Assembly (NCBI GenBank): GCA_012838135.1 | Contig: DUPV01000060.1 | Location: forward strand, 22,498 to 86,497 | Source: Clostridiaceae bacterium | Lineage (GTDB): Bacteria > Bacillota > Clostridia > Saccharofermentanales > DTU023 | DNA length: 64,000 bases | Direction of reading: 5' to 3' | Part shown: one piece after another, positions 10,693 through 32,749 of the stretch | How the letters are laid out: each line of letters begins with the position of its first letter | Numbering within the stretch: position 1 is the first letter of the stretch | The notes under the pieces: generated by a model | Databases searched by the model: none | Seen by the model: the letters and a program-made list of their open reading frames with translations, nothing else | Told to the model about the DNA's origin: nothing | Program-made: the position numbers and the translations under genes

Positions 10693-10856
10693 TTTGTATT
10701 ACTTCGCTATAATTCTAAAGCGACTGTTTTTGTGAATTAAAAATGACCGAATGCCTATTTTGAAGAATGAAGTATCTGATTATTTGATTTTAATATTTCA
10801 TCATTAGGATTCAGTATTTAGTTATTAGGCTTTAATTTACAAAAAAGTTTATACGA

Positions 10857-10948
10857 GGAAGCGTAGCGAAGATGGCCGTAACGCGCCGCACTCGAAATGC
10901 GGTTGTCCAGAGATGGGCACGTGGGTTCGAATCCCACCGCTTCCGCCA
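10857..10948 (+). tRNA. tRNA-Ser (anticodon CGA), class II with long variable arm and encoded CCA
   Basis: Acceptor GGAAGCG/CGCTTCC, anticodon stem ccgca/tgcgg with loop cTCGAaa, 6 bp variable-arm stem, T arm gtgggTTCGAATcccac, discriminator G plus CCA. Confidence 0.9.
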
Positions 10949-10951
10949 GAC

Positions 10952-10994
10952 AGGACATCATATTTTGATAGAATATGGTGTCCTTTTTCTTTTG
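10952..10994 (+). terminator. Rho-independent terminator after the tRNA
   Basis: aggacatcatatt / aatatggtgtcct forms a 13 bp stem with one G-U pair, followed by tttttctttt. Confidence 0.75.
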
Positions 10995-11103
10995 CTTAAA
11001 AGCGTTGATTTCAATCAACTTGAGGGTTTGAGATATAAAACAATCTGTTTCGAGGTCTTTTTCGGGACGGTTTTTTCTTGTTTTTGTTTTTTTTATATCC
11101 CTG

Positions 11104-11176
11104 CTTGAAATAAAGCGAGTGATGCAGCCATCTTATTTCAAGTTTAGTTGATAGATTGAAATAAGATGGCTATAAT
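11104..11176 (+). promoter_or_regulatory. Promoter embedded in a 16 bp perfect inverted repeat, upstream of fic
   Basis: -35 TTGATA (11148-53), 17 nt spacer, -10 TATAAT (11171-76). IR arms are AGCCATCTTATTTCAA (11126-41) and TTGAAATAAGATGGCT (11156-71). A third half-site cttgaaataa lies at 11104-13. Confidence 0.6.
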
Positions 11177-11211
11177 ATGATTGCTATTTCAATTAGAATG
11201 GAGACGCTGAT

Positions 11212-12354
11212 ATGAACAATCGAGCAGGATCATACAGAACGAACCTTTCCGGAGAGGCGGAGTACAAATCCTTTATACCGAATCCCCTGCCGCCAAAGCC
11301 TGAGGTGGAAATGAACAATGACATTGTCTCTTTGCTAGTAAAGGCGAATAGGATGATTTCAACCCTTGAGAGTATATCCTCAAGGATTCCCGATATGGAT
11401 CTGTTTATCTCCATGTATGTCAGAAAAGAAGCTCTGATGTCATCTCAGATTGAAGGAACGCAAGCAACGCTTGAAGACATCTTCGATCCGATGATTGAGA
11501 AGAATACCAATAGAAATGTGGCGGATGTCGTCAATTATATTAAAGCGACAGAATATGCGGTAAAAAGATTGAATACGCTTCCACTCTGCAACAGACTGAT
11601 TAAAGAAACACACGCGGTATTAATGGAAGATGTACGTGGACAGGAAAAGAGTCCCGGAGAGTTCAGGCGCTCTCAGAACTGGATCGGCGGTCAGGGCAGC
11701 ACATTGAAAAATGCCAGATATATTCCCCCGAATCCGGAGGATATGAATTCGGCTATGTCTGACCTCGAAAAATATATGAACGCCGAGGACGATTTGGACT
11801 TTCTTATCCGGGCAGCGCTGATTCATTATCAATTTGAAACTATTCACCCGTTCCTTGACGGAAATGGCAGAGTCGGACGTTTGCTGATTACCTTGTTTCT
11901 GATGGATAAGAAAGTTCTGACAACCCCGGCACTTTATATTTCTTATTTCCTAAAAAAGAACCGTGTAGAATATTATGACCGGATGACCGAGGTAAGACTC
12001 AAGGGAAATTATGAACAGTGGATCAGGTTCTTCCTCATGGCAATTGACGAGTCTGCACAAGATGCTATCGCAGCAATTGATGAAATAACAGCCTTGCAAG
12101 CCGAAAACCGCAAAAAAGTAAGCGCAATGGGCAGAGCATCGAAAAACGCACTGTTAGTATTTGAATATTTAGCGTCCCATCCGATTATTGACATTGGAAA
12201 GACGGCTGAAGCATTAGATGTTTCCTATAACACGGTTTCTGCTGCGGTAAAACGGTTTATGGATGCGGATATTCTCGTTCAAATGGAAAATATAAACAGG
12301 AACCGTACCTTTGCCTACAGAGATTATCTGGACATCCTACGTAAAGGAACTTGA
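11212..12354 (+). CDS. Fic/DOC family protein, AMPylase-type with intramolecular inhibitory motif
   Basis: Fic motif HPFLDGNGRVGR, upstream SSQIEG matching (S/T)xxxE(G/N), and a C-terminal wHTH-like region. Confidence 0.85.
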   Translation: MNNRAGSYRTNLSGEAEYKSFIPNPLPPKPEVEMNNDIVSLLVKANRMISTLESISSRIPDMDLFISMYVRKEALMSSQIEGTQATLEDIFDPMIEKNTNRNVADVVNYIKATEYAVKRLNTLPLCNRLIKETHAVLMEDVRGQEKSPGEFRRSQNWIGGQGSTLKNARYIPPNPEDMNSAMSDLEKYMNAEDDLDFLIRAALIHYQFETIHPFLDGNGRVGRLLITLFLMDKKVLTTPALYISYFLKKNRVEYYDRMTEVRLKGNYEQWIRFFLMAIDESAQDAIAAIDEITALQAENRKKVSAMGRASKNALLVFEYLASHPIIDIGKTAEALDVSYNTVSAAVKRFMDADILVQMENINRNRTFAYRDYLDILRKGT

Positions 12355-12545
12355 AATTAACAGAACAAAAAACGGAAGGCACAGGGGATTCCATCAGCGC
12401 CTTTATGTTTGAGCTGCACGAAACCGATGAGCCGGTCACGGAGTTCGACAATAAGCTTTGGATCTCGGTCATGGATAACGTGCTGATAAGGTCTGACGGA
12501 ACACTGGTCTTCAGGTTTAGAAATGGGATGAAGATTGAAGGATAA
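12351..12545 (+). pseudogene. C-terminal remnant of a large serine recombinase
   Basis: ..TEFDNKLWISVMDNVLIRSDGTLVFRFRNGMKIEG resembles the conserved extreme C-terminus of TndX-like large serine recombinases. No catalytic domain lies upstream, and the frame overlaps the fic stop. Confidence 0.55.
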
Positions 12546-12561
12546 TCTTTAATAACAAATG

Positions 12562-12590
12562 GGTGTCGGAATCAAATCCGGTACCTTTTT
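12562..12590 (+). terminator. Rho-independent terminator
   Basis: ggtgtcgga / tccggtacc forms a 9 bp stem with two wobble pairs, followed by ttttt. Confidence 0.5.
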
Positions 12591-12688
12591 GATATATGAA
12601 TCAAAAAGCCTGTTTTAATACTCTTTATATTTTAGGAGTAGCTTGAAAGGTAGTCTTGTATATATACTCTGAAATTTCCCGAAAGTTA

Positions 12689-12733
12689 TTGACATATGCC
12701 ATAAACGACGTATAATGAAAACAAATGGCATAT
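12689..12733 (+). promoter_or_regulatory. Promoter with a flanking 9 bp inverted repeat (candidate operator)
   Basis: TTGACA (12689-94), 16 nt spacer, TATAAT (12711-16). ATATGCCAT (12694-702) and ATGGCATAT (12725-33) bracket the -10 box. Confidence 0.6.
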
Positions 12734-12760
12734 CTCATAAACCATAAGGAGATGAATAGC

Positions 12761-12883
12761 GTGCCTGGAAGAGATGGAACTGACCCGGTAGGTGTCGGAG
12801 CGATTACCGGAAGAGGTTTAAGGAATAACCAGAGGGCACTCTGGTTATTCCTGTTTAGAGTGGAGGTGGTGTGTTATAGCTAG
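12761..12883 (+). pseudogene. Truncated DUF5320-like mini-ORF (40 codons)
   Basis: GTG lies 8 nt after AAGGAG. VPGRDGTDPVGVGAITGRG matches the N-terminal MPxxDGTGPxGxGPxTGRG signature of DUF5320 proteins. The rest is unrelated and contains a hairpin. Confidence 0.45.
12821..12852 (+). promoter_or_regulatory. Strong 14 bp hairpin in the leader between the promoter and the DUF134 gene
   Basis: aggaataaccagag / ctctggttattcct with loop ggca, followed only by a weak T tail (gttta). Confidence 0.45.
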
Positions 12884-12887
12884 ACCA

Positions 12888-13256
12888 ATGAAATGGAGAA
12901 GGGTTTGCCGTTTGCCTGAAAATAACAGGTTCGGTCCTCTTGATTTGCCCATTGATGCAGAAAACCATGTAACCATGACTGTAGATGAGTATGAAACCAT
13001 AAGACTTATTGATCAGGAAGGTTTTACTCAAGAAGAGTGTGCCAAGCAAATGAATATCGCTCGCAGCACCGTTCAAGGTATTTATATAGAAGCCAGAAAA
13101 AAATTGGCGAACTCCCTGGTAAACGGAAAAGTGTTGCTGATTGAAGGTGGTGAATATCGGCTTTGTGAAGGCTTGGGGAATGGTTGTGGGCGCGGCTGTC
13201 ATAGGCATAGGCGTGGTCGACGATTCATAAATGATGATGCGGACCGAGATAGTTGA
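12888..13256 (+). CDS. DUF134 (UPF0251) putative DNA-binding protein
   Basis: KWRRVCRLPENNRFGP..MTVDEYETIRLIDQEGFTQEECAKQMNIARSTVQ (sigma-70 region-4-like HTH). The conserved N-terminus continues upstream to an ATA codon at 12876, which is correctly spaced from GGAGGTG. Confidence 0.75.
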   Translation: MKWRRVCRLPENNRFGPLDLPIDAENHVTMTVDEYETIRLIDQEGFTQEECAKQMNIARSTVQGIYIEARKKLANSLVNGKVLLIEGGEYRLCEGLGNGCGRGCHRHRRGRRFINDDADRDS

Positions 13257-13260
13257 TTAT

Positions 13261-13458
13261 ATATATTCAGAAAAAGTGATTGAGCTTTTTATGTGTCCAT
13301 AAAATGCCTATAGCATGCCTGATGCGGATATCGAGAGAAACTGCGGGATTTGTCCTTCTTTGGATGGACTTCCTGAAAATAAAGTACATTGTTCAAACTT
13401 AGGTGTGAGTGCCCTACGAAACGCAATTGAAAATTATTTTAAAAAATGGCTCTGTTAA
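13261..13458 (+). pseudogene. Degraded NifU/IscU-like Fe-S scaffold gene
   Basis: IYSEKVIELFMCP*NA.. then ..KVHCSNLGVSALRNAIENYFKKW match the N- and C-terminal ends of IscU-type scaffolds. There is no ATG, an in-frame TAA at 13300-02, and the central ~70 codons are missing. Confidence 0.6.
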
Positions 13459-13512
13459 CTAAAGATGAATTTTTAAGTTAACAGAACATAAAAAATAGAA
13501 TGGAGAATTATT

Positions 13513-13881
13513 ATGAAAATAGCAATTCCGGCAGATGGGAAAAACATGGAATCGAATGTATGTGTATCCTTTGGTCGTGCTCCCTATTTTCTTATTTATG
13601 ATGTAGAAACCAAGAAAAGTATATTTATTAACAACAGTGCGGCGGCAAGCACAGGAGGTGCAGGGATTAAAGCTGCACAAATAATAGTGGATAGCAAAGC
13701 AAATGTTTTAATCACTCCCCGCTTAGGAGAGAATGCTGCTGATGTAATTAAATCTGCTGATATTAAAATCTATAAAACGATAGCTGGTTCAGTCAAAGAT
13801 AATATTGATGCTTTTACTGCAAATAAACTTTCTTTACTGAATGAAATCCATGCCGGGTTTCATGGACGAGAAGAAAATTAA
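13513..13881 (+). CDS. NifB/NifX-family (dinitrogenase FeMo-cofactor-binding fold) protein
   Basis: MKIAIPADG..VSFGRAPYFLIYD..GGAGIKAAQ is typical of the NifX/NifB-C family. Confidence 0.75.
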   Translation: MKIAIPADGKNMESNVCVSFGRAPYFLIYDVETKKSIFINNSAAASTGGAGIKAAQIIVDSKANVLITPRLGENAADVIKSADIKIYKTIAGSVKDNIDAFTANKLSLLNEIHAGFHGREEN

Positions 13882-13882
13882 T

Positions 13883-14746
13883 ATGAAAATAGCTGTACTA
13901 AGCGGCAAGGGAGGCACAGGAAAAACGCTGGTATCAGTGAATTTAGCTGCGGCAGCAAAAGCATCCACATATATAGACTGTGATGTCGAAGAACCGAACG
14001 GGCATTTGTTTTTTAAACCCGAAGGAGTTCAAGAGGAAAATGTAACTGTAAAAATTCCAAAAGCGGATGATAAATTATGCAATGCCTGTCGTAAATGCGT
14101 TGATTTTTGCAACTTTAACGCCCTTGCCCATGTTAAAGACAAGTTGATTGTCTTTGAGGAAGTTTGTCATTCTTGTGGTGGTTGTATTCTGGTCTGTCCT
14201 GAAAAAGCACTAACAGAGAGAGAAAAGGTTATCGGTAAAGTTCAAAAGGGGACCTCTGACCAAGTATCGATATACACAGGAATATTAAAGATCGGTGAAG
14301 CATCGGGGGTTCCGATCATTAAAAAGCTGCTTGATGAGAAAAATCCTAAAACAAATAAATTAACCATTATTGACTGTCCCCCTGGAAGCGCCTGTATTGT
14401 AATGGAAAGCATAAAAGATGTGGATTATTGTATTTTAGTAGCTGAGCCTACATTGTTCGGTGTACATAACCTCAACATGGTATATGAGCTGGTAACATTG
14501 TTAAATAAGCCGTTCGGAGTTGTCCTTAATAAATGTTTGTTGGAAGAAAAAAATCCGGCAGAAAAGTTTTGTATAGAAAAAAACATTAAGATTATAGAGC
14601 GAATTCCATTTGACAATGAGCTCGGAACGTTGAACTCAAACGGGGAAATTGCTGTTCATAAAAATGAAAAGTACCGAGAACTGTTTTCTTCTCTGCTTAA
14701 CACGGTGACAAAGGAAGTGTGGCATGAAACAACTATTAATCCTTAG
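13883..14746 (+). CDS. MinD/ParA-type P-loop ATPase with inserted 2x[4Fe-4S] ferredoxin domain
   Basis: Deviant Walker A GKGGTGKT, plus CNACRKCVDFC and CHSCGGCILVCP. Confidence 0.8.
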   Translation: MKIAVLSGKGGTGKTLVSVNLAAAAKASTYIDCDVEEPNGHLFFKPEGVQEENVTVKIPKADDKLCNACRKCVDFCNFNALAHVKDKLIVFEEVCHSCGGCILVCPEKALTEREKVIGKVQKGTSDQVSIYTGILKIGEASGVPIIKKLLDEKNPKTNKLTIIDCPPGSACIVMESIKDVDYCILVAEPTLFGVHNLNMVYELVTLLNKPFGVVLNKCLLEEKNPAEKFCIEKNIKIIERIPFDNELGTLNSNGEIAVHKNEKYRELFSSLLNTVTKEVWHETTINP

Positions 14747-15599
14747 CGGTAAAGGCGGTACCGGAAAAACGACAATAGCAAGCGCATTTATAAAACTTGC
14801 GGATGCCAAAGCATATGCAGATTGTGATGTGGACGCACCTAACCTGCACCTTATAGCCGGATGGGATGCTGAGCCGGAGAGAACAGACTATTATGGGCTG
14901 TCAAAAGCAGAAATACATCCGGAATTATGCACCCAATGCGGTCAGTGCCAACAAAATTGCCGCTTCGATGCTATTTCAATAGATGAGAACTACAAAGTCG
15001 ATCCTTTTTCGTGTGAAGGTTGTGGTGTTTGTGAGTATGTTTGTCCTGTAAATGCGATCACGCTGATCCCGTCAGTAGACGGTGAGCTGACTCTTTATTC
15101 GGACTCCGGAAGAGTTTTTTCCACAGCACAGCTTAAAATGGGTAGCGGTAACTCCGGATTGCTTGTTACAGAGGTGAAAAAGCGAATGAAGTCGGCAGCA
15201 GTTAATGCCGAACTGGCTATTATTGATGGCTCACCCGGAATAGGTTGTCCTATTATCGCATCACTCAGCGGTGTGGATATGGTTTTGATAGTCGCAGAAC
15301 CCTCTATATCAGGTATCAGCGATATGGAACGCATTATAAAAACAGCAACGAATTTCAGAATTAAGACAGCAGTATGTGTAAATAAATTCGATACGAATAT
15401 TGAAATTACAGAAAAAATAGAAAGCTTCTGTAATCAACAAGGTCTTGAGTTTATGGGTAGAATACCTTTTGACTCTAAGGCAGTAAAGGCTGTTAACAAC
15501 GGCCAAACCATTGCAGACATAGACTGCACATCGGGGACGGCGGTTAAAGAAGTTTATCACAACACAATGAAACTACTCCTTAAGAAAGTTGGTGCCTGA
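14724..15599 (+). CDS. Second MinD/ParA-type ATPase with a 2x[4Fe-4S] ferredoxin domain
   Basis: GKGGTGKT, plus CTQCGQCQQNC and CEGCGVCEYVCP. Overlaps the upstream paralogue by 23 nt. Confidence 0.8.
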   Translation: MKQLLILSGKGGTGKTTIASAFIKLADAKAYADCDVDAPNLHLIAGWDAEPERTDYYGLSKAEIHPELCTQCGQCQQNCRFDAISIDENYKVDPFSCEGCGVCEYVCPVNAITLIPSVDGELTLYSDSGRVFSTAQLKMGSGNSGLLVTEVKKRMKSAAVNAELAIIDGSPGIGCPIIASLSGVDMVLIVAEPSISGISDMERIIKTATNFRIKTAVCVNKFDTNIEITEKIESFCNQQGLEFMGRIPFDSKAVKAVNNGQTIADIDCTSGTAVKEVYHNTMKLLLKKVGA

Positions 15600-15602
15600 G
15601 TC

Positions 15603-16430
15603 ATGCTTATTAAAACTTTGGTTGAAAATACAACGATATCAAATGATTTTGGGAAAGAACATGGTCTTAGCCTGTATATAGAAACAGGGAAACATAAAAT
15701 ATTATTTGACGTGGGTGCAAGCGACTTGTTTCTGCAAAATGCAAAAAAACTTGATGTGAATATTGCTGATATTGACTTTCTTGTGATTTCGCATGGACAC
15801 TATGATCATGGCGGAGGGCTAAGAACATTTTTCAAAGAGAACACAAGAGCTGAAGTATTTGTACATCGACTCGCTTTTGGAAAACACTATGCTATTCGCT
15901 CGAATGATGAATTAGACTTTATAGGTCTTGCTGAAGAACTAAAACACAATAAACAAATCGTTTTCACCTCAGACCGCTTTTTTATCAACAGTAGAATTCA
16001 AGTTTTCTCGAATGTACTCCAAAGGGAGCCGCGCCTAAAATCAAACAATGGCTTGCTCAGAAAGCATGAGGTTCAGGGACAAATGCTAGATGATACATTT
16101 GCGCATGAACAACACCTTGTGATAGAGGAAGAAGGAACAATTCTATTGGTAACAGGCTGCGCTCATAATGGTATCATAAACATACTTGAGCATTTTTACA
16201 TGCTTAAGGGTCAAATGCCCGACTATGTGATAGGTGGATTCCACCTTTCCAGCCGTTCAGGCGGCGATGAAGACTCTGAAATGATAGATAGAATTGGTAA
16301 ATATCTAATGGGTACAAAAGCAAAGTTTTACACCTGCCACTGTACAGGTATCGAACCTTATAAAAGACTAAAAGCCAATATGGGTGACAACATTGACTAT
16401 CTGTCGACTGGAAACCAAATAAAAATTTAG
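15603..16430 (+). CDS. MBL-fold metallo-hydrolase
   Basis: Beta-lactamase-fold motif ISHGHYDHGGG, with later His/Cys ligands (GCAHNG, CHCTG). Confidence 0.7.
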   Translation: MLIKTLVENTTISNDFGKEHGLSLYIETGKHKILFDVGASDLFLQNAKKLDVNIADIDFLVISHGHYDHGGGLRTFFKENTRAEVFVHRLAFGKHYAIRSNDELDFIGLAEELKHNKQIVFTSDRFFINSRIQVFSNVLQREPRLKSNNGLLRKHEVQGQMLDDTFAHEQHLVIEEEGTILLVTGCAHNGIINILEHFYMLKGQMPDYVIGGFHLSSRSGGDEDSEMIDRIGKYLMGTKAKFYTCHCTGIEPYKRLKANMGDNIDYLSTGNQIKI

Positions 16431-16642
16431 TAACTAAGAAAACTACTAAATAAGTGGATGCGCATATGAAAGGGTTTAATACGTGTGCTTGAATTTAAAT
16501 TTTTGCAATTAGTGCGATGTTGGTAAACAGTTTTGGAATTTGTTCTATTCCCTGTTAAAACAAAGACCGGCATTGATATTATGTCCGTTAACTTGCTTAT
16601 AGAGCCGGTCGCGAAAATATTAAAAAAATGGAGGAAAACTAA

Positions 16643-17002
16643 ATGATTAAAATAGCAGTAGCAAGCGAAAATGATATGGTGACAGAGCATTTTGGACATT
16701 GTATAAACTTCAATATATTTGAAATCCAAAATGACCGAATTGTAAAGAGCGAGTCCATAGCAAATCCTGGACATAAGCCCGGATTTCTGCCAAACTTCCT
16801 GAATGATATGGGTGTGAATGTTGTTATATCAGGTGGTATGGGTGGTGGAGCCATCGATATTTTCAATGAGAAAGGGATCGAAGTAATTGTCGGTGCCAGT
16901 GGATATGCCAAAGCGGCTGCAGAAGCATATTTGGCAGGAACTTTAAAATCAACTGGTTCTATTTGCCATGAACATAAACACCACGATAAATGTGGAAATT
17001 AA
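16643..17002 (+). CDS. NifB/NifX-family protein, second copy
   Basis: MIKIAVASE..VTEHFGHC..GGMGGGAIDIF, with a C-terminal His/Cys-rich tail CHEHKHHDKCGN. Confidence 0.75.
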   Translation: MIKIAVASENDMVTEHFGHCINFNIFEIQNDRIVKSESIANPGHKPGFLPNFLNDMGVNVVISGGMGGGAIDIFNEKGIEVIVGASGYAKAAAEAYLAGTLKSTGSICHEHKHHDKCGN

Positions 17003-17300
17003 AATAATTCTTTTTTAGAGAGTTGTGTAAGTTCTGAGAAATAGAAATCACAGAGCGAAAAATAGAGAAAACAACTTCAAAACTCTATAGTTGGGTTGTG
17101 GGTTAGATGTTTTTAGCCTGCCGAGGCTGTACATTAGATGTTTTGATAGGTTATGGCTGTGGATAGATGGACCTGAAGTAAAAGTATAGATTAATTTGCA
17201 ATTTTATTGATTGCTTCATATGTTTATCTTGGTTTCGGGATATATAATATTGATGGGCAATCTTTATTCGGCCTCAATTTGTTTATATGGGGGTGTAATT

Positions 17301-17974
17301 GTGAAGTTACTATATGCCGAGGATGAATTGGCTCTATCCGAAGCAGTCGTAGATTATCTTACATATCATAAATATATCGTTGATGCCGTATATGACGGTG
17401 CTGATGCTTACGATTATGCCATATCCGGTGAATATGACGGCATCATTCTTGATATCATGATGCCAAAGTGTGATGGCTTGGAAGTTCTTTCTGCGCTTCG
17501 CAAAAATGGATGTAAAACACCTATACTTTTGTTAACTGCAAAAACACAGATAGAGGATCGGATTCGCGGTCTGGATATAGGTGCAGATGATTATCTGCCC
17601 AAGCCCTTTGACATGGGCGAGTTGATTGCAAGAATCCGCGCCATGCTGAGACGACGAGAAGAATTTCACCCTGATTTGATATGCTTTGGTGACTTAACGT
17701 TAAATATGAGTCCGGGGAAATATGTGTGAAAGATATTTCTTTTCAGTTGCCAAAGCAAGAATATCGTCTTATGGAGCAATTAATGCTGAATCATACGATG
17801 TATCTTTCCACGGAGGATTTACTTGTAAAAGCATGGGGTTATAACGCGGAAACAGATGTAAACAGCGTATGGTTATATATCTCATATTTACGGAAACGTC
17901 TTTCGGCAATTAACTCTAAGGTGAAGATTATCTCAAAACGGAATATTGGATATAAATTAGAGTTAAAGTCATGA
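17301..17974 (+). pseudogene. OmpR-family response regulator split by a frameshift
   Basis: The receiver domain (17301-17729) and winged-helix domain (17726-17974) lie in different frames. Adding one G to GGGG at 17714-17 restores ..NMSPGEICVKDISFQLPKQEY... The true start is probably GTG at 17301. Confidence 0.75.
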
Positions 17975-19191
17975 CGAAGACATTAAAAAAACGATTTATT
18001 ATATTCACAATGACGGCAGTTACTTGTCTTTTGGTATTTATTGTATTTGCTGTCAACGGACTTAATTGGATGATGCTGGAACGTCAATCCGATATGGTAA
18101 TGAAAATCCTTGTGGACTCTGATGGTGTCTTTAATAAGATGGATTTTAATCGTCCGCCGCCTTTCTCAAGACCGCTTGATATGGATAGAATGCGTTCTTC
18201 AAGATTCTTTATTGTTCTAAGTGATACAAACGGCAACATCATAGATGTAGATATTACTCAAATATCCTCGATAGATTACAAGACTGCAAAAAGCTATGCT
18301 TTGGCAGTATTAAAATCAGACAAAGAATCCGGACGGATGAACGGATATAAATTTGCCACAAAAAAGATGGGGCCGAATCAGCTTACATTTTTCATGGATA
18401 TGTCAGGGCAGAGCGAAAGCTTCTATAGAGTCTTGTTTGCTTCGGGTGCGATAGTGGCACTTTGCTGGCTTGTTCTCCTGATTATTGTTATTCTGCTTTC
18501 GGGCAAAGTTATTCATCCCGTTCTTATGGGCATGGAAAAGCAAAAGCAGTTTATAACCAACGCCGGCCATGAGATGAAAACGCCGCTTGCAATTATTCAA
18601 TCAAATAACGATACGATGGCACTCATTCACGGAGAGAACAAGTATAATGTCAATATTCGTACACAGACAAAAAGGCTTAACGTATTGATGTCGAACCTGC
18701 TGACACTCGCCAGGCTTGATGAGGAAATTCCTTTACAGGCGGAGCCGGTAAATGTAAGCGAAGTTACAACGAAAGTGCTTTCTGTCTATCAAGAGTATGC
18801 CGGGCTTCGCAATCTTCATTTTGATGTTAAGATTGAGCCTGATATTATTATATCGGTTAACAAAGACGGTTTTCGTCAGATTGTGACAATCCTTATGGAT
18901 AATGCTCTAAAGTACACCCCTGACAATGGATATATTAATTTGTCATTGGTTAGAAACGGCAGACATATTCAAATTATCGAAGAAAATACCTGTGACGTAT
19001 CTCTTGAGGCAGATCCGGAGAGACTGTTTGAAAGATTTTATCGTGGAGATGCCGCACGGACACAGAGTAAAGAATTCTCCGGTTACGGAATTGGTCTTTC
19101 CGCTGCCCGTGCAATTTGTGAGAATTTCGGCGGAAAGCTGACAGCGGAATACTCATCTTCAGAAAGTATCCGTTTTATTGCCCGATTTTGA
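17971..19191 (+). CDS. Sensor histidine kinase
   Basis: Two TM helices, H-box AGHEMKTPLA, and G-box GYGIGLS. Start/stop overlap with the regulator gene (ATGA). Confidence 0.85.
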   Translation: MTKTLKKRFIIFTMTAVTCLLVFIVFAVNGLNWMMLERQSDMVMKILVDSDGVFNKMDFNRPPPFSRPLDMDRMRSSRFFIVLSDTNGNIIDVDITQISSIDYKTAKSYALAVLKSDKESGRMNGYKFATKKMGPNQLTFFMDMSGQSESFYRVLFASGAIVALCWLVLLIIVILLSGKVIHPVLMGMEKQKQFITNAGHEMKTPLAIIQSNNDTMALIHGENKYNVNIRTQTKRLNVLMSNLLTLARLDEEIPLQAEPVNVSEVTTKVLSVYQEYAGLRNLHFDVKIEPDIIISVNKDGFRQIVTILMDNALKYTPDNGYINLSLVRNGRHIQIIEENTCDVSLEADPERLFERFYRGDAARTQSKEFSGYGIGLSAARAICENFGGKLTAEYSSSESIRFIARF

Positions 19192-19312
19192 AAATACAAC
19201 AAATTCGATATGCGTTCACAAACTTTCTTGTATTTGTTTACAAACAGTTTTTTTCTTATGTACATCATAGGTTCGTTTTTTATAATGCCAGTATGGAAAG
19301 GGGGAGTACCTT

Positions 19313-19984
19313 ATGCAATTCAGACATGAAGTTAAACATGAAATCAGTAATCACGATATGCTTATTCTGCGTCAGAGACTGCGGGCTGTAATGAAACCGG
19401 ACAGTCATGCCGTAAATGGAAAATATGAAATACGAAGTCTGTATTTTGACAATCTTGATGATAAAGCTCTTCGGGAGAAACTGGATGGTGTAAGCATTCG
19501 TGAAAAATATCGAATTCGTCTGTATAACAACGATAAATCCCAAATATGTTTGGAGAGAAAATATAAGTGCGGCGGACTCGGCTATAAAACCTCGGTCAAC
19601 CTTACGCCTAAGCAAGCTCAAGCGGTTGCAGACGGTGATATAGGTTGGATGGCTGCAAGCACCGATGAAGTTATTATAAACTTTTATATGTGTGCACGAA
19701 ACGAAGGACTGAGGGCCAAGGTAATTGTGGATTATACCCGTGAGCCGTTTGTATTTGCTTCCGGCAATACAAGAGTAACGATGGATTATAACATCCGCAC
19801 CGGTATGGGCTGCACGGATTTTCTGAATCCCGCTTGTGTAACAGTTCCGATTGAAGGTGCGCCTTGCATCCTCGAATTGAAGTGGGATGACTATCTTCCC
19901 GATGTAATCAGGGGTGCGATACAGCTTGAAGGCAGACACAGTGCGGCATTTTCAAAGTATGCCGCTTGTCGGATGTATGACTGA
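19313..19984 (+). CDS. VTC-domain (polyphosphate polymerase catalytic-type) protein
   Basis: FRHEVKHEI..GKYEIRSLYFDN..REKYRIRLYN..LERKYK matches the bacterial VTC-domain family. Confidence 0.75.
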   Translation: MQFRHEVKHEISNHDMLILRQRLRAVMKPDSHAVNGKYEIRSLYFDNLDDKALREKLDGVSIREKYRIRLYNNDKSQICLERKYKCGGLGYKTSVNLTPKQAQAVADGDIGWMAASTDEVIINFYMCARNEGLRAKVIVDYTREPFVFASGNTRVTMDYNIRTGMGCTDFLNPACVTVPIEGAPCILELKWDDYLPDVIRGAIQLEGRHSAAFSKYAACRMYD

Positions 19985-20024
19985 TGAATCATTTAATAAT
20001 AAACACAAAGGAGTAATATAAATC

Positions 20025-20696
20025 ATGACTTTTAACGATATTTTCAAATCAAGCTTTCTGGAAAATGTATCTTCTATCAGCATTCTTGATATGCTGCTCA
20101 CCATCGTGCTGTCTTTCGGAATAGGTCTGTTTATCTTTCTCATATATAAGAAAACCTACCGTGGTGTTATGTATTCCACAGGCTTTGGCACAACACTAAT
20201 CGCCCTTACAATGATAACTTCCATCGTTATCCTTGCCGTAACTTCTGATGTTGTCTTGTCTCTCGGTATGGTCGGTGCGCTTTCCATCGTCCGCTTTCGT
20301 ACAGCAATTAAAGATCCTTTGGATATTGCGTTTTTGTTTTGGGCTATCGGTGCAGGTATTATCCTTGCGGCAGGCATGATTCCGCTGGCAATAATAGGCA
20401 GCGTATGTATCGGTCTGATTTTGTTGGTATTTATCAATCAAAGATCCCATACACATCCCTACATGGTTGTACTGAACTGTATAAATCATGATGCGGAATT
20501 GAAAGCCAAGGAATTTCTTGTAAAGAATGTAACCCGCACCACGGTAAAAAGTAAATCCGCTGTAAAGGGTGCGGTTGAAATGAACATTGAAGTTCGTCTC
20601 AAGGAGGATGACACAGATTTTATCAATATCCTCTCCGAAATGCCCGGTGTGAACAGCGCAGTTATAGTCTCCTATAATGGCGATTACATGGGGTAA
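20025..20696 (+). CDS. DUF4956 membrane protein
   Basis: Four to five TM helices. SLGMVGALSIVRFRTAIKDPLDIAFLFWAIGAGI is the DUF4956 signature. Confidence 0.75.
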   Translation: MTFNDIFKSSFLENVSSISILDMLLTIVLSFGIGLFIFLIYKKTYRGVMYSTGFGTTLIALTMITSIVILAVTSDVVLSLGMVGALSIVRFRTAIKDPLDIAFLFWAIGAGIILAAGMIPLAIIGSVCIGLILLVFINQRSHTHPYMVVLNCINHDAELKAKEFLVKNVTRTTVKSKSAVKGAVEMNIEVRLKEDDTDFINILSEMPGVNSAVIVSYNGDYMG

Positions 20697-22678
20697 GTCG
20701 ATGGCAGGAAGTAAACATTTTGATAAAATTGCATGGATAGTCACAGCCTTGATGTTGATCATCACCGTTCTGTTTATGTATGGCGGCGCTTTTGGCCTTG
20801 AAGTTATGGCGCGTACTATTGGATACGAAAATCGTCTGTTCGACAATACAAGGGTACATACCATTGATATTGTCATGAACAATTGGGACGAATTTATTGC
20901 AGATGCCACAAGTGAAGAATACTATCCTGCCGCTGTAGTGATTGACGGTGAAACTTATAGAAATATCGGTATACGGGGCAAGGGCAATACATCTCTTTCA
21001 ACGGTTTCTTCCATGAACAGCGACCGCTACAGTTTCAAGGTGGAGTTTGACCACTACGACAGCTCAATCACATATTATGGCCTTGATAAATTGAATTTGA
21101 ATAATTTAATTCAGGATTCCACAATGATAAAAGACTATCTTACCTACACCATGATGAAAGAGTTCGGTGCGGTGACTCCTCTATGTAGTTTCGTATACAT
21201 CACGGTCAACGGTGAGGACTGGGGATTATATCTAGCGGTAGAAGGTGTGGAAGACAGTTTTCTTGAAAGAAATTACGGTTCAAATTACGGTAAGCTGTAT
21301 AAGCCGGACAGCATGAGTTTTGGGGGCGGTCGTGGTCATGGTAAAGATTTCAATATGGAAGATTTTATGAATCGTGATAACCCGGATGAAAACACCGATA
21401 AATCTACTCAAGTCATGACCGTGCCGGAAATGCCGGATATGACTCAGACTGAATCTGATTTCAGAAAAAGAGATGATTTACCCCTTAGCGGTAGCAGGGG
21501 CGGATTCGGCAGCAGGGGGAGCTTCCGATGTGAAGTTACAGTATATAGATGACGATGCTGATAGTTATTCGAACATCTGGGAAAGTGCCAAAACCGATAT
21601 TACTACAGCCGACCGGATACGGCTCATTGAATCTTTGAAAAATCTGTCAAACGGCGAACAGATTGAATCGGTGGTAGATATTGAGCAAGTTATTCGTTAT
21701 TTTGTGGTACATAACTATGTTTGCAACGGAGACAGCTACACCGGGACTATGATTCATAATTACTATCTGTATGAAGAAAACGGGCAGATGGTGATGATTC
21801 CATGGGATTACAATCTGGCATTCGGTACTTTCCAAGGAGGAAATGCGCAGAGTACAATCAATACACCCATTGACTCCCCTATATCCGGCGGCTCTTCCAC
21901 TGACCGTCCGATGTGGAACTGGATTGTAGCAAATAAAGAATATACCGAACTGTACCATCAGTATTTTGAGGAGTTTTTTGATACAGTGGATATTGACGGA
22001 ATTATCAACAACACCTATAGTCTGATAAAATCTTATGTAGAAAAGGATCCGACATCATTCTATTCTTACGAGGAATTTAAAACAGGTATTAATACAATGC
22101 GGCAGTTTTGTACACTGCGTTCTGAATGCATATCCATGCAGCTTGAAAACAATGAAACTAAAAGCAATATGAGCTATGTGGACGGTTCCGAGCTTACATT
22201 GTCCGATATGGGTTCTATGGAGATGGGTGGTAGATTCGGTAGAAGCGGCATGCCGGATATGGGTGAAAATCAAGGTAGCTTAGGTGGGGAGATCCCAGAA
22301 GGCTTCAATCCTCCGCAGATGCCTGATGACTTTGGTGGTAACATCCCGGAAGGTTTCGATCCTTCGCAGATACCCGACGGCGAAATACCAAAAGGTTTTG
22401 ATCCTTCACAAATGCCCGGAGGATTTAACGGTAGATTCCCGGAGCAGTCGTTTGATGGAGCAGAAATAACACCTTCAGAAAATGAAAACCGAACAGATAT
22501 AAAGGGGAACGGCAACCGTTCTTCCCGCGACAATATGCAAATGCCCGGAGGCGATTTTAATTTCAATATAAACGGTATGGACAATCCTGATTCGAGTAGC
22601 ACAAACTTGATACCGCTCGTCGTATCCGTACTGATTCTTTGCGCGGGTTTAATCATTGCAAAAGCATATAAGTATTAA
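20677..22678 (+). pseudogene. CotH-family kinase-like protein, frameshifted
   Basis: The CotH core (RYSFKVEFD.., GLDKLNLNN, GKLYKPD) is in ORF 20677-21552 and continues (DVKLQYIDDDADSY..) in ORF 21473-22678. Removing one G from GGGGG at 21515-19 fuses them. N-terminal anchor and C-terminal TM helix are present. Confidence 0.75.
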
Positions 22679-22689
22679 CGAGAAATAGG

Positions 22690-22740
22690 AAAATCGCTGT
22701 AGTTTTTATCTTCATGTAGGACAGAAGTTACAGCGATTTT
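22690..22740. terminator. Hairpin between convergent genes (putative bidirectional terminator)
   Basis: aaaatcgctgta / tacagcgatttt forms a perfect 12 bp stem with a 27 nt loop. A/T runs flank both sides. Confidence 0.5.
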
Positions 22741-22745
22741 GTATT

Positions 22746-23339
22746 TTAAGAACAAGGGTGTAAAAGTTGATTTTGGTTACCTAAGAGGAAATAACCAGAA
22801 ATTAATATTAACCCCAAAATAGGAATCACAAGAGCGAAAATATTCTTAAAGCCATTTTGAAGAAAAATAAAACCGAACAAGGCGTTTTCGGATCCTATAA
22901 AAATCTCGGGAACAAAACCGTGCGAGGCGGCTCTCTGGGAAAAAAGGGAAATTTCTATTTCTTTTCCCTTACACTCCGCTTCGGTCTTTATAAACGCCCA
23001 AAAGTCACCGAAATCTTTTCCTGAAAATTTACTGCTGTCATTGCCTATGTCATAAACCGTTTCTCCGTCAATTTTTACAAGAACGGACTGTGCATTGGAT
23101 TTCATAGCTATAACTGAACCGTCCGGCATATTGCCGGGAAGAGTGTTTTTTATCACTAAAGGTTCGGTTTCTTCCATATTAAAATGGTAAGGCAAACTAA
23201 ATTTTTCCTTATATCCGTCGCCTTTCCAAGTCCAACCGTCTGAAAAAGCGATCACGTTTTTATCAATAAGATAGATATCCGGCATATCTATCTTATTCGG
23301 ATAAATCAATATGGAAGAAAATAAAACGGCTAATAGCAC
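22746..23339 (-). CDS. Probable 5' fragment of a membrane sensor: TM helix, ~150 aa extracytoplasmic domain, one TM helix
   Basis: 197 aa. The architecture resembles the N-terminus of 7TMR-DISM-type sensors but stops right after the first distal TM helix. No output domain. Confidence 0.4.
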   Translation of the reverse strand: MLLAVLFSSILIYPNKIDMPDIYLIDKNVIAFSDGWTWKGDGYKEKFSLPYHFNMEETEPLVIKNTLPGNMPDGSVIAMKSNAQSVLVKIDGETVYDIGNDSSKFSGKDFGDFWAFIKTEAECKGKEIEISLFSQRAASHGFVPEIFIGSENALFGFIFLQNGFKNIFALVIPILGLILISGYFLLGNQNQLLHPCS

Positions 23340-23387
23340 AAAGAAAACAATCTCATTAATTTTTTTAAACCTTACTTACCCCAAAGT

Positions 23388-24290
23388 TTAAATTAATGCA
23401 GTACTGAAATATCTTTCCACCCTGTCCGGCAGAATAGTGACGATGTTTGTATCTTGACCATATTTTTGCGAGATCTGAATAGATGCCCAGACATTGGCGC
23501 CGGCCGAAGTGCCAACCAAAAGACCTTGCCCGCTGGCCAATGCTCTTGTAGTATTAAAAGCATCTTCATCCGTCACCTCAATAACTTCGCTAATCAGGCT
23601 GACATCAAGCACGCTGGGGATGAAACCATCGCCAATACCCTGAATCTTATGAAATCCCGGTTCGTGTCCTAATAGCGCAGAAACATTTTTCGGCTCCACG
23701 GCGATGATCCTGGCCTGTGGATTCTTTTCTTTAATAAAGCGGCCAACTCCCGTCAATGTTCCACCGCTCCCCAGCCCGGAAACAAAGACATCTACTTTGC
23801 CATCCATTTGTTCCCATATTTCCGCCGCCGTGGTTAAGTAGTGGATATAAGGATTATGCATATTTTCAAACTGTTGCGGAACAAAAATATTCACATCAGC
23901 AGCTTGTTGCCGTTCTACCTCCGCGACTGCTCCACCAATGTTTTCCTCGGCATCAGTCAGGATCAGCTCGGCACCCAGAGCGCGGATGATCTTTTTTCTT
24001 TCCTCACTCATATTTTCCGGCATGACTATTACCACCCGGTAGCCCTTTTGCACACCGACTAATGCCAGACCAATTCCGGTATTGCCCGAGGTGGGCTCCA
24101 TTATCGTCATGCCGGGCTTTAATTTCCCTTCAGCTTCAGCCTGCTCAATCATATATTTAGCCACCCGGTCTTTGATGCTGCCGCCGGGATTCAAGTACTC
24201 AGCCTTTGCAAATATATTTAGTCCTGTGGCCTTTTTTAGGTTAATAATCGGTGTATTGCCGATAATATCAAGAATGCTTTCAGTAATCAT
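23388..24290 (-). CDS. cysK: Cysteine synthase A (O-acetylserine sulfhydrylase)
   Basis: PLP lysine motif GGSIKDR, plus SGNTGIGLA and GSGGTLTG. Confidence 0.9.
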   Translation of the reverse strand: MITESILDIIGNTPIINLKKATGLNIFAKAEYLNPGGSIKDRVAKYMIEQAEAEGKLKPGMTIMEPTSGNTGIGLALVGVQKGYRVVIVMPENMSEERKKIIRALGAELILTDAEENIGGAVAEVERQQAADVNIFVPQQFENMHNPYIHYLTTAAEIWEQMDGKVDVFVSGLGSGGTLTGVGRFIKEKNPQARIIAVEPKNVSALLGHEPGFHKIQGIGDGFIPSVLDVSLISEVIEVTDEDAFNTTRALASGQGLLVGTSAGANVWASIQISQKYGQDTNIVTILPDRVERYFSTALI

Positions 24291-24675: not shown

Positions 24676-25851
24676 TTAGTCACACTTATTGAGCGCATCT
24701 CTTCTATCGGGAAGTATTCCTTCACAAATCTTTCTATTCTTTTCTTCATACATAGAAACATCGATTCTCCTCAAAAAATTATCTATTGAGTCATGCTTGC
24801 TTTTGTATGTACTGTAACCGATTGAATAAGTTATCTTATAAGGTTTCTTTTCTGATTCATTGAACAATGTTGCTTGTGTTTTAATGATATCAATCATATC
24901 TGTAATTTCTTTCTGAGAGTTTACTTGCATTAATATGACAAACTCATCACCTCCACACCTAAATATTATCCCTTTATTATTCACAGCTGTGCGTAATATC
25001 TTTCCGGTTATAGAAATAGCATCATCACCTACAAGATGTCCAAATCTATCATTTATGCTTTTGAAGCCATCAATGTCTAACATGATTCCGGCAAGTATAT
25101 AAGGAGTATCTCCTTTTTCACTATACAGTAACAACATCTTATTAAAGTACTGTCTGTTGAATAATCCCGTCAGTACATCTATATACGCTGCTTCATTTTG
25201 AACACTAATGAATAGCGAAACTATCCCTACAGCCACTCCAAGCCACATGAGAGAGTATCCATAAAAGAAGAACTGCAACAGACTTCCGATTATAATGGGA
25301 GTTATAAATACAAGAGCAGGAAAAAACAAGTACTTATGAACCTTCTTACGATACAAATAAATTAATATAACCCCGTATGCAACATAAAAATACGTCACAG
25401 CATATGGAATTATATATAAATCTGCTCTTTGATAAACATTATATTCATCGATTAAAAAAAATACAGGTGTGACCAAGTTTATTAAGCAGCCAATTATTGT
25501 TAGCACGGCAGGTATAGCAACAAAAGAATATAGTCGCTTGATTCTTTTCATATTTGCAAACAATTTATAGTCCACATAAATTACCCATAAATAAGAAAAT
25601 ATAATACTGTTAATAAATAGAGTGGTATTCAGTACTAGCGTCAGCGTACGATATCCATCTTCCATTTTACCATCCATAAAAAAACCGGCTGATTCAAGAA
25701 AGCATTGCAGAATATTTAAAATAACCATTGCATAGAATATCTTTTCTTCAAACAATCCATGCCGTAGTGGACTTTTAAAATTCAATAAGATAACTGCTAA
25801 CAACAGAATTGCTGTTCCATTTGCAATATATATAGCCGGAAAATTAATCAT
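24676..25851 (-). CDS. Membrane-bound diguanylate cyclase (polytopic TM domain plus GGDEF)
   Basis: About 6-7 TM helices, then a GGDEF domain with an intact RCGGDEF. No RxxD I-site seen upstream. Confidence 0.85.
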   Translation of the reverse strand: MINFPAIYIANGTAILLLAVILLNFKSPLRHGLFEEKIFYAMVILNILQCFLESAGFFMDGKMEDGYRTLTLVLNTTLFINSIIFSYLWVIYVDYKLFANMKRIKRLYSFVAIPAVLTIIGCLINLVTPVFFLIDEYNVYQRADLYIIPYAVTYFYVAYGVILIYLYRKKVHKYLFFPALVFITPIIIGSLLQFFFYGYSLMWLGVAVGIVSLFISVQNEAAYIDVLTGLFNRQYFNKMLLLYSEKGDTPYILAGIMLDIDGFKSINDRFGHLVGDDAISITGKILRTAVNNKGIIFRCGGDEFVILMQVNSQKEITDMIDIIKTQATLFNESEKKPYKITYSIGYSTYKSKHDSIDNFLRRIDVSMYEEKNRKICEGILPDRRDALNKCD

Positions 25852-31724: not shown

Positions 31725-32032
31725 TTAATACGGTTATTATTTGTAATAATCAGATTTTTGTTTTATCTTAACTATATTGAATTGATGTTTTATAAGAAAT
31801 CTGTTACTTATAATTGATCAAGCTTATTAGAAGAACAGCAAGGGCAAATGAGATTCAATGATAAGTTATTTGAGATACTTTTCATGAAATCTGAATTGTC
31901 CTTTCTCAGAGGTAGAGATTATTTCTTCAGACATTCTGCCGGAGGCTTTTCAAACAGAGGCTTTTCAAATTTTTTCAGATCTCTTTTTAATTTTTGAGTT
32001 TACAAAACAACATAGCGAGCCGGGAGGAGAGT

Positions 32033-32728: not shown

Positions 32729-32749
32729 ACAATTGATTAGCGAATCTTT

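Follow-up and report, generated by a model that had tools for sequence, protein, structure and literature searches.

Could a bacterium make polyphosphate (polyP) with a relative of the eukaryotic VTC enzyme and place it at the disposal of a kinase outside the cell? The question is raised by a module of five co-directional genes, which encode an OmpR-type response regulator, a histidine kinase, a protein with the VTC-type triphosphate tunnel metalloenzyme (TTM) domain, a DUF4956 protein and a CotH protein. The module occupies positions 17301-22678 of the window, that is, the whole 64,000-nt stretch analysed here (Clostridiaceae bacterium, assembly GCA_012838135.1, contig DUPV01000060.1, positions 22,498 to 86,497 of the forward strand). 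A first-pass annotation had suggested that the last three genes form a split bacterial analogue of the VTC machine, which would make and export polyP, or another phosphodonor, for an extracytoplasmic CotH kinase. The module turns out to be common rather than unique to this window, has been partly described before and is damaged in the present copy. Its VTC-like protein is, as far as sequence tells, a Vtc4 catalytic core placed outside the VTC complex architecture.

The VTC, DUF4956 and CotH genes are contiguous and lie, in this order, behind the regulator-kinase pair:

17301-17974 (+): OmpR/PhoB-type response regulator, split between two open reading frames (ORFs), with Response_reg (E = 3.8e-27) in ORF 17211-17729 and Trans_reg_C (E = 1.8e-16) in 17726-17974
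17971-19191 (+): sensor histidine kinase, 406 aa, intact, HisKA and HATPase_c domains (Pfam)
19313-19984 (+): soluble Vtc4-type TTM protein, 223 aa; PF09359, E = 2e-35, residues 3-219
20025-20696 (+): DUF4956 membrane protein, 223 aa; PF16316, E = 4e-12
20701 (or 20677)-22678 (+): CotH kinase-family protein, predicted outside the cell; PF08757 halves on two ORFs

All three Pfam domain calls of the first-pass annotation hold with the genes where it had placed them, the motifs it quoted (RHEVKHEI, SLYFDN, REKYRIRLYN and SLGMVGALSIVRFRTAIKDP) are present, and the upstream OmpR-type regulator and kinase are real.

The VTC protein, named 'polyphosphate polymerase domain-containing protein' by NCBI, has no transmembrane (TM) segment in a TM scan and consists of the VTC domain alone, with neither an N-terminal SPX sensor domain nor a fused three-helix channel domain; the adjoining membrane protein belongs to DUF4956 and not to DUF202. 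The yeast Vtc4 structure PDB 3g3q is matched by a profile built from 40 diverse homologues from bacteria (E = 3.9e-11). Such a family profile is needed, as a single-sequence phmmer search of PDB with the VTC protein gave no match; a 42-column C-terminal mini-profile did not retrieve Vtc4 either. In yeast Vtc4, residues K200, R264, R266, K281, Y359, R361, E426, S457 and K458 hold the triphosphate and Mn2+, all nine are required for polyP in vivo, and in the paralogues Vtc2/3, which are inactive, Ile or Leu stands in place of K458 (VTC cryo-EM preprint). The first-pass annotation had named loss of the tunnel residues as a ground for abandoning its reading; in our alignments all nine are kept in the same order in the window protein, as K8, R67, R69, K83, Y141, R143, E188, S214 and K215, the last being the equivalent of Lys458. 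The S457/K458 equivalence comes from alignment to a fungal Vtc4 fragment ('..PKFSKFIHG' against 'AFSKYA'), and the nine positions are invariant or nearly so in the 40 homologues. An AlphaFold2 model of moderate confidence (pLDDT 65, pTM 0.62) retrieved Vtc4/2/3 tunnel domains as its top 13 Foldseek matches in PDB (E ~3e-9, TM-score ~0.5-0.56).

The TTM fold supports many chemistries, and further down the Foldseek list stand ygiF, archaeal TTMs, thiamine triphosphatase and adenylyl cyclases. The tunnel enzyme might thus not be a polymerase at all: it might hydrolyse tripolyphosphate or nucleoside triphosphates, or cyclise a nucleotide, serving as a phosphatase or in signalling under a misleading VTC name, and the literature searched holds no assay of any bacterial member that would speak to this. 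However, the closest matches in both sequence and structure are to Vtc4, and the Vtc4 residue set is kept in full, including the polymerase-specific Lys458 equivalent; we regard a non-polymerase as very unlikely. That the VTC-like protein is a polyP polymerase is somewhat more likely than not.

With the yeast VTC complex (PDB 3G3Q, 8I6V) it has in common the PF09359 catalytic tunnel domain and the nine triphosphate/Mn2+ residues and, as in yeast, the catalytic unit has a membrane protein as its partner, with conserved basic residues at the predicted cytoplasmic face; the yeast channel has Lys/Arg rings at its cytoplasmic mouth (VTC cryo-EM preprint). Unlike the yeast complex, the module has a free soluble 223-aa enzyme without SPX, without a fused DUF202-type channel and without a Vtc1 homologue, and its membrane partner is the unrelated, MgtC-like DUF4956. 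Yeast VTC is under inositol-pyrophosphate control, whereas the window module has a two-component system instead. The best database matches of the VTC protein are 76-85% identical, and the bacterial VTC family comprises 4156 clusters at 50% identity. Eight members (P0197, P0205, P0218, P0244, P0247, P0248, P0260 and P0262) are longer, at 365-488 aa, with N-terminal extensions of 140-260 aa that have no Pfam match.

Does the gene set belong together? One genome per species was scanned with VTC motifs from a 13-sequence subset, which yielded at least 596 matches in hundreds of species-level genomes, many of them gut and rumen Clostridia. Our genome sample of 81 loci consists of the best 80 of these matches (57-82% identity) and locus L003, a related locus with intact orthologues (~81% identical) that served as the reference for frameshift and substitution-rate comparisons. 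The 80 best loci are mostly from metagenome-assembled genomes of Lachnospiraceae and Oscillospiraceae, and also include [Clostridium] aminophilum DSM 10710. A DUF4956 gene follows on the same strand within ~3 kb 3' of the VTC gene in 79 of the 81 loci, the contigs ending first in the other two, and in ~75 of 81 the two genes are directly adjacent. The regulator-kinase pair adjoins about half of the loci, either co-directionally upstream or divergently, and is the only conserved neighbour in the genome sample.

More distant relatives were represented by a metagenome sample of 80 loci anchored on DUF4956 (35-59% identity to the Planococcus DUF4956). VTC lies directly 5' of DUF4956 in 58 of the 60 loci with room for it, and in 46 of 53 a CotH gene is no more than 6 kb away. 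In ~24-30 of the metagenome loci VTC-DUF4956-CotH is followed, in this order, by a ~725-aa protein, a HEAT protein and a chitin-synthase-like glycosyltransferase of family 2 (GT2). On a Pseudobutyrivibrio plasmid, CotH-VTC-DUF4956 sits within an exopolysaccharide (EPS) cluster. The first-pass annotation had set absence of conserved synteny outside this genome as a refutation of its reading; the gene order in fact recurs in hundreds of genomes, far beyond chance, and VTC and DUF4956 are its almost invariant core. That the gene set is a functional unit in intact relatives is near certain.

The first-pass annotation knew of no experimentally defined function for the trio. This stands in that the literature searched contains no biochemical study of any DUF4956 protein or CotH ecto-protein; the trio itself, however, had already been described, and deletions in Streptococcus intermedius have mild aggregation phenotypes. 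The trio was reported from Clostridium perfringens NELoc-2 in 2010, with DUF4956 mislabelled 'tubulin/FtsZ' (PMC2879425), and cotH, a polyP polymerase, DUF4956 and DUF4832 were listed as accessory genes next to the pel operons of Gram-positive bacteria (Whitfield et al. 2020, PMC7112168). In S. intermedius (2025), deletion of the DUF4956 or the CotH homologue lowered aggregation in sputum medium by >50% and altered the levels of Pel (PMC12345266); the authors propose a role 'in phosphate metabolism', and their preprint adds that polyP may stay cytoplasmic. The same authors did not find the trio outside pel loci (PMC12345266), a statement that fails for the Clostridia loci sampled here.

The known loci differ from the window module in several respects. 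The pel accessory trio (S. intermedius SIR_1594-1592) has the same three contiguous families, with CotH predicted secreted or outside, but the window module has neither pelDEA(DA)FG beside it nor the DUF4832 or glycoside hydrolase gene that usually goes with them, and its genes run VTC-DUF4956-CotH behind the regulator-kinase pair. Where the pel accessory CotH has an FN3 domain, the window CotH has a special anchor at its N terminus, an acidic spacer and a TM helix at its C terminus. NELoc-2 has the same trio in the same order (DUF4956 being assigned there by position and size), followed by a 685-aa protein, a HEAT protein and a chitin-synthase-like glycosyltransferase that are absent 3' of the window cotH; CotH of the NELoc-2 type starts with a plain hydrophobic leader, that of the window with an MSTHKxIDKIC-type anchor. 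No pel or EPS genes were found within ~10 kb of the window module which, given also its two-component system and special anchor, represents a new context for a known trio. As a separate observation, the Planococcus maritimus plasmid NZ_CP059541.1 (L088, 5389-12824) has the same six-gene order as NELoc-2; the six-gene cluster also occurs in L089, L093, L096, L099-L105, L110-L114, L117-L119, L123, L129 and L141, and its ~700-aa protein is without a Pfam match.

What, then, is the membrane partner? The 120 best database homologues of DUF4956 are 91-96% identical to it and come from different genera, and an 18-residue motif, SLGMVGALSIVRFRTAIK, is unchanged in homologues with 35% overall identity. 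This 18-mer holds three basic residues, the cluster VRFRTAIK containing R90, R92 and K96. The AlphaFold2 model (pLDDT 53), which we used for the order of secondary-structure elements only, has five helices followed by a predicted cytoplasmic beta-alpha-beta-beta-alpha-beta (ACT-like) domain. From the five helices and the predicted cytoplasmic C-terminal domain we infer that R90/R92/K96 would lie at the cytoplasmic end of helix 3.

DUF4956 looks MgtC-like by three independent weak signals. The NCBIfam MgtC/SapB model matches collinearly over residues 71-212 with E = 1.3e-6, below its cut-off (28 bits for PRK09977, where 214 would be required); the Planococcus homologue matches Pfam MgtC with E = 2e-5 and 25.2 bits, the cut-off being 31.4; and the best Foldseek match of the pLDDT 53 model in PDB is the MgtC C-terminal domain 2LQJ (E = 1.2e-3, TM-score 0.65 normalised on the target), ahead of ACT/PII folds, a fold match that is supportive rather than decisive. 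The S. intermedius study likewise reads the DUF4956 homologue SIR_1592 as MgtC-TM plus ACT (PMC12345266). MgtC/SapB proteins of Salmonella and Mycobacterium tuberculosis have a multi-helix membrane domain and a C-terminal ACT-like domain, an arrangement that the pLDDT 53 model suggests for DUF4956 too, and, beyond the weak but collinear matches, there is a thematic tie to ATP and phosphate balance; MgtC is a regulator of ATP synthase and of phosphate balance. Unlike MgtC, DUF4956 has its own invariant motif and an obligate VTC-domain neighbour, and its scores lie far below the curated MgtC/SapB family thresholds, which it does not reach.

These signals are also the ground for a different account of the module, one of phosphate and energy homeostasis in the cytoplasm: polyP would stay inside, DUF4956 would be an MgtC-like regulator with ACT-type ligand sensing, acting for example on ATP synthase, inorganic phosphate uptake or the adjacent kinase, and the ecto-protein would merely be co-regulated. 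Besides the three routes to MgtC, the absence of any recognisable channel fold in DUF4956 fits this account. It leaves unexplained, however, why the third gene faces outwards with a dedicated conserved anchor and why distant trios lie in exopolysaccharide loci, and the MgtC matches on which it draws are below curated thresholds; we judge it rather unlikely.

Two side observations concern DUF4956. Compared with its L003 orthologue (10705-11376), its synonymous divergence (dS 0.62) is about half that of its neighbours (1.2-1.7), besides a very low nonsynonymous divergence (dN); selection on the RNA or on codon choice could account for this, as could gene conversion. In Bacteroides thetaiotaomicron a DUF4956 gene stands beside a DUF2490 gene (BT3498-BT3499), both iron-regulated (PMC10434189); this may be a counterpart of the module in Gram-negative bacteria that includes an outer-membrane component.

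Turning to CotH, the true start is likely ATG 20701 (MAGSKHFDK...), by alignment with orthologues, and the first-pass description of an N-terminal anchor, Gly/Pro repeats and a C-terminal TM helix is borne out, the TM scan placing helices at aa 15-33 and aa 643-661:

20701-20811 (+): N-terminal anchor module; anchor hidden Markov model (HMM), E = 1e-20
22190-22603 (+): acidic Gly/Pro/Asn-rich low-complexity spacer, with degenerate IPEGFDPSQMP-like repeats in translation
22604-22660 (+): C-terminal TM helix by hydropathy scan, followed by the basic tail AKAYKY

No tandem repeat was found in the spacer at the DNA level. After repair of a frameshift, described below, the protein aligns with Bacillus cereus CotH (PDB 5jd9, E = 6.9e-11), and its catalytic Asp (..CNGDS..) and metal-binding Asp (..IPWDYN..) align to the equivalents of B. 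subtilis D228 and D251. Mutation of either residue, D228 (catalytic) or D251 (metal binding), inactivates B. subtilis CotH. Both motifs are present in all 48 CotH-type orthologues; protein kinase activity is a putative function of the window protein. Lysine residues precede the N-terminal TM helix and AKAYKY follows the C-terminal one, so that by the positive-inside rule at both anchors the kinase domain is predicted outside the cell, tethered at both ends via the acidic Gly/Pro-rich spacer, in agreement with the extracytoplasmic CotH of the first-pass annotation. The placement is also favoured by Cthe_2159 proteins, introduced below, and the streptococcal CotH homologue, both known to be extracellular, the latter having been found in secretomes. 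Bacillus CotH (PDB 5JD9) has the PF08757 fold and the D228 and D251 equivalents in common with the window protein, but it works on coat proteins in the mother-cell cytoplasm, whereas the window CotH is predicted outside, with two TM tethers and no link to sporulation genes. With the domain predicted outside, the question of its phosphate donor is a real one.

CotH is not the only protein found in this position. Among the 66 sister loci with a full-length third gene, 48 encode CotH and 18 a Cthe_2159 beta-helix protein (PF14262, E = 1e-57 to 1e-87), a family that binds cellulose and polygalacturonate; a few loci have neither. The Cthe_2159 loci are as follows:

L027, L034, L038, L044, L048, L049, L051, L056 and L058
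L061, L066, L070-L072, L074, L077, L078 and L086

These 18 genes had been candidates for CotH, which we rejected, since the clade HMM matched their N-terminal anchor only and Pfam identifies them as Cthe_2159. The two kinds, of which only CotH is present in the window, differ in that Cthe_2159 is a non-catalytic or lyase-like binder and CotH belongs to a kinase family, but they share position and frame: an N-terminal peptide and TM helix come first, then the ectodomain, which is unrelated between the two, then a comparable acidic spacer and finally a second TM helix that ends in a basic tail. The C-terminal TM helix is found in 35 of the 48 CotH-type and 15 of the 18 Cthe_2159-type orthologues. 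The shared anchor has the consensus MSTHKHIDKIC-TM-LFMNGEALG; in the window it consists of a short cytoplasmic peptide, MAGSKHFDKIAW, and a TM helix ending in LFMxGGAFGLE. An HMM of this anchor, built from CotH-type proteins only and run against 6359 six-frame ORFs of related loci, matched third-gene products only, including all 18 of the Cthe_2159 type (E = 2.5e-19 to 3.7e-8), and no other ORF among the 6359 even at E <= 10; in the window it matched cotH alone. The anchor is absent from CotH proteins of NELoc-2-type and EPS-type loci, and the literature searched makes no mention of it. Its restriction to third-gene products argues for a specific role, which would most simply be to hold the ecto-protein against the VTC/DUF4956 pair. 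An unusual arrangement was seen in L162 (7142-12541), where DUF4956, VTC, an opposite-strand Cthe_2159 gene and a second VTC gene lie together.

The presence of a binding protein in place of a kinase bears on another interpretation, in which exported polyP is itself the product. As a polyanion it would cross-link or organise a cationic exopolysaccharide (Pel, or partly deacetylated polymers of the N-acetylglucosamine type), with CotH and Cthe_2159 as surface binders and organisers that do not consume a phosphate donor. Pel is cationic, Cthe_2159 binds the polyanion polygalacturonate, distant trios lie in pel operons and in clusters with chitin-synthase-like GT2 and HEAT genes, and deletion of the DUF4956 or CotH homologue lowers Pel-dependent aggregation. 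Against this, there are no EPS genes near the module in the window clade, the catalytic aspartates of CotH are kept, which argues for enzymatic use, and the VTC deletion in S. intermedius does not behave like the other two. A structural role of polyP in the matrix appears distinctly unlikely.

As to how the module is switched on, a promoter-like element lies upstream of VTC:

19256-19286 (+): promoter/operator-like element TTATGTACATCATAGGTTCGTTTTTTATAAT, 26 nt 5' of the VTC start

It comprises TGTACA-16-TATAAT at 19259-19286 and a TTATG-N6-CATAGGT motif, with half-sites ~11 bp apart, that overlaps the promoter and abuts the TATAAT -10 box. Two half-sites ~11 bp apart before a -10 box are the usual layout for activators of the OmpR/PhoB type. 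The half-site motif was found 5' of VTC in 19 of 80 related loci, as against 1.25% of random 150-nt windows, and we infer that 19256-19286 is a candidate binding site of the adjacent regulator. The histidine kinase, 81% identical to its L003 orthologue, has TM helices at aa 10-28 and 160-178 around a ~130-aa outside loop. The matches of regulator and kinase to PhoB/PhoR/PnpS-type models fall far short of the equivalog cut-offs, so that a role in phosphate sensing cannot be claimed.

Put together, these elements suggest the following chain. The sensor kinase would perceive a cue from the envelope or the exterior, and the phosphorylated regulator would switch on the promoter at 19256-19286. Like Vtc4, the VTC-like enzyme would use ATP to make polyP, on the inner side of the membrane, and would dock on a DUF4956 oligomer, whose basic VRFRTAIK cluster would take up the polyanion. 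PolyP, or phosphoryl units derived from it, would get to the outer face, where the tethered CotH, using it as a donor or binding it, would phosphorylate or organise polysaccharides or proteins of the cell surface. That polyP is made at the membrane, passes via or along DUF4956 to the outer face and is used or bound there by CotH or Cthe_2159 is a tentative proposal, to which we would give somewhat less than an even chance. A synthase-translocase proper, in which the Vtc4-like enzyme on the oligomeric, MgtC-like DUF4956 delivers a high-energy phosphate polymer to the outside for use or binding by interchangeable ecto-proteins that the MSTHKxIDKIC-TM-NGExLG anchor recruits, seems unlikely.

Several points weigh against the chain. 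CotH is not obligatory, as some loci have another protein in its place or none. No relationship links DUF4956 to DUF202, the channel domain of VTC; it resembles MgtC instead, which is not known to conduct anything or to act as a channel; given a likeness to MgtC and not to a channel, export through DUF4956 is purely a matter of inference. The AlphaFold2 model of DUF4956 is of low confidence (pLDDT 53), its alignment rows being 91-96% identical. A search for natural VTC-DUF4956 fusions gave none that was convincing; P0243, with VTC and DUF4956 in one ORF, was rejected as a fusion, as its VTC domain is truncated and it is probably a frameshift artefact. The literature searched holds no biochemistry on any bacterial VTC-domain protein, and in S. 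intermedius deletion of the VTC homologue had no clear phenotype (PMC12345266). Finally, frameshifts interrupt the regulator and cotH, two of the module's five genes, in this genome. The polyP-trio interpretation of the first-pass annotation accordingly has synteny and the tunnel residues in its favour, whereas the dispensability of CotH, the lack of relationship between DUF4956 and DUF202 and the two frameshifts tell against it.

Is the copy in the window functional? Neither the regulator nor CotH has an uninterrupted reading frame:

17714-17717 (+): GGGG run, the likeliest frameshift site of the regulator, one base short; the repaired reading ...LTLNMSPGEICVKDISFQLPKQEY matches orthologues
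20677-21552 (+): ORF of the N-terminal half of cotH; PF08757 profile positions 1-133, E = 5.5e-30
21473-22678 (+): ORF of the C-terminal half of cotH; PF08757 profile positions 115-320, E = 1.6e-29
21515-21519 (+): GGGGG run, the likeliest frameshift site of cotH, one base too many; the overlapping frames are open over 21443-21552

By tblastn with the intact 224-aa L003 orthologue, the regulator switches frame within 17693-17729, and one added G restores a 224-aa protein that aligns end to end with intact orthologues. This frameshift was absent from the first-pass annotation. In the same way, comparison with the intact L003 CotH shows that cotH changes frame within 21443-21552, in a ~50-aa low-complexity insertion or loop that the L003 orthologue lacks. 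The ~667 codons given for cotH in the first-pass annotation come to 666 after one frame change: a single-base repair yields 666 codons from ATG 20677, or 658 from ATG 20701, and the 666-aa protein aligns over its full length with intact orthologues. Programmed frameshifting in either gene was rejected because the orthologues are uninterrupted.

Both frameshifts are of 1 nt and both fall in G-runs. We screened the whole 64-kb window, with its ~64 long ORFs, for neighbouring same-strand ORFs with overlapping open frames and obtained 12 pairs, including the two splits. Five others were rejected as split genes because Pfam identifies distinct complete genes, and two more because they are separate genes in the Joint Genome Institute (JGI) gene table. 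Three pairs with overlaps of 22-29 nt fall outside the checked set and other types of damage escape the screen, within which no gene but the regulator and cotH came out as split. By our own arithmetic, the chance that two random hits would both fall inside 5.4 of 64 kb is ~0.7%. Window positions 11981-24181 (12.2 kb) recur at 100% identity on a JGI metagenome contig (3300002898) that has the same split genes; with such identity the contig probably derives from the same reads and is not an independent confirmation of the indels.

In comparison with L003, the ratio of nonsynonymous to synonymous divergence (dN/dS) is 0.07 for VTC, 0.055 for DUF4956 and 0.087 for the histidine kinase; for the regulator it is 0.03 in the N-terminal part and 0.04 past the frameshift, and for CotH 0.07 and 0.12, respectively. 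All five genes are thus under purifying selection (dN/dS 0.03-0.12), and no further stop codons occur 3' of either frameshift, from which it follows that the indels arose very recently, vary within the population or are errors of the consensus. This copy is probably switched off or was inactivated very recently, unless both indels arose in assembly. That the module survives here as a relic, decaying or switched off by the loss of regulator and cotH, or else that the G-runs hold consensus errors of a metagenome assembly, is an explanation to which we give somewhat less than an even chance, and it is compatible with all other readings of the module. The clustering of the only two splits detected, their position in G-runs and the same indels in the JGI contig accord with it, the last with little weight given that contig's probable origin in the same reads; the purifying selection past both shifts without further stops, and the intact VTC and DUF4956 genes, do not.

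Other two-component genes occur in the window at 7953-9840 (a histidine kinase after an ABC-2-type membrane protein) and at 31991-34600 (an intact OmpR-type response regulator and a HAMP histidine kinase). Given this intact OmpR-type regulator, the frameshift in the module's regulator is not general for such genes here. The upstream flank of the module carries Fe-S/CbiA, Nitro_FeMo-Co and metallo-beta-lactamase genes and the downstream flank genes for cysteine synthase, a GGDEF protein, PEBP and others. The upstream cluster at 12822-17002 has no relation to the module and is missing from the orthologous locus L003; it encodes DUF134, a metallo-beta-lactamase-fold protein, two CbiA/ParA-type Fe-S ATPases and two Nitro_FeMo-Co proteins, which are dinitrogenase cofactor-binding-like. 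Downstream, a 197-aa ORF (22746-23339, - strand) with one C-terminal TM helix and no Pfam or PADLOC match ends 68 nt from the cotH stop, and may be a truncated gene for a sensor-type ectodomain. The GGDEF protein (24676-25851, - strand) is a multi-TM diguanylate cyclase 2 kb 3' of the module and is not conserved in related loci; bifidobacterial trios adjoin a diguanylate cyclase/phosphodiesterase gene (PMC7112168). No second copy of the VTC, DUF4956 or CotH family was found in the window, no Rfam RNA in the region, and no matching PADLOC defence family, the sole match, to MzaC, being insignificant.

What would the module mean for bacterial phosphate biology? PolyP in bacteria is attributed to PPK1 and PPK2, and VTC-type polymerases are regarded as eukaryotic; yet the bacterial VTC-type family is large. 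A first concrete hypothesis is now available for its neighbour, the MgtC-like DUF4956 family; what the virulence factor MgtC does at the molecular level is still debated. The third-gene anchor emerges as a module that is specific and transferable and from which a physical complex is predicted. Kinase domains outside the membrane raise the question of their phosphate donor, and the pairing of a putative polyP synthase with a CotH ecto-protein makes this question testable. If the synthase-translocase reading is true, then in the loci with CotH it would provide an ATP-independent source of power for the phosphorylation of proteins or glycans outside the cell.

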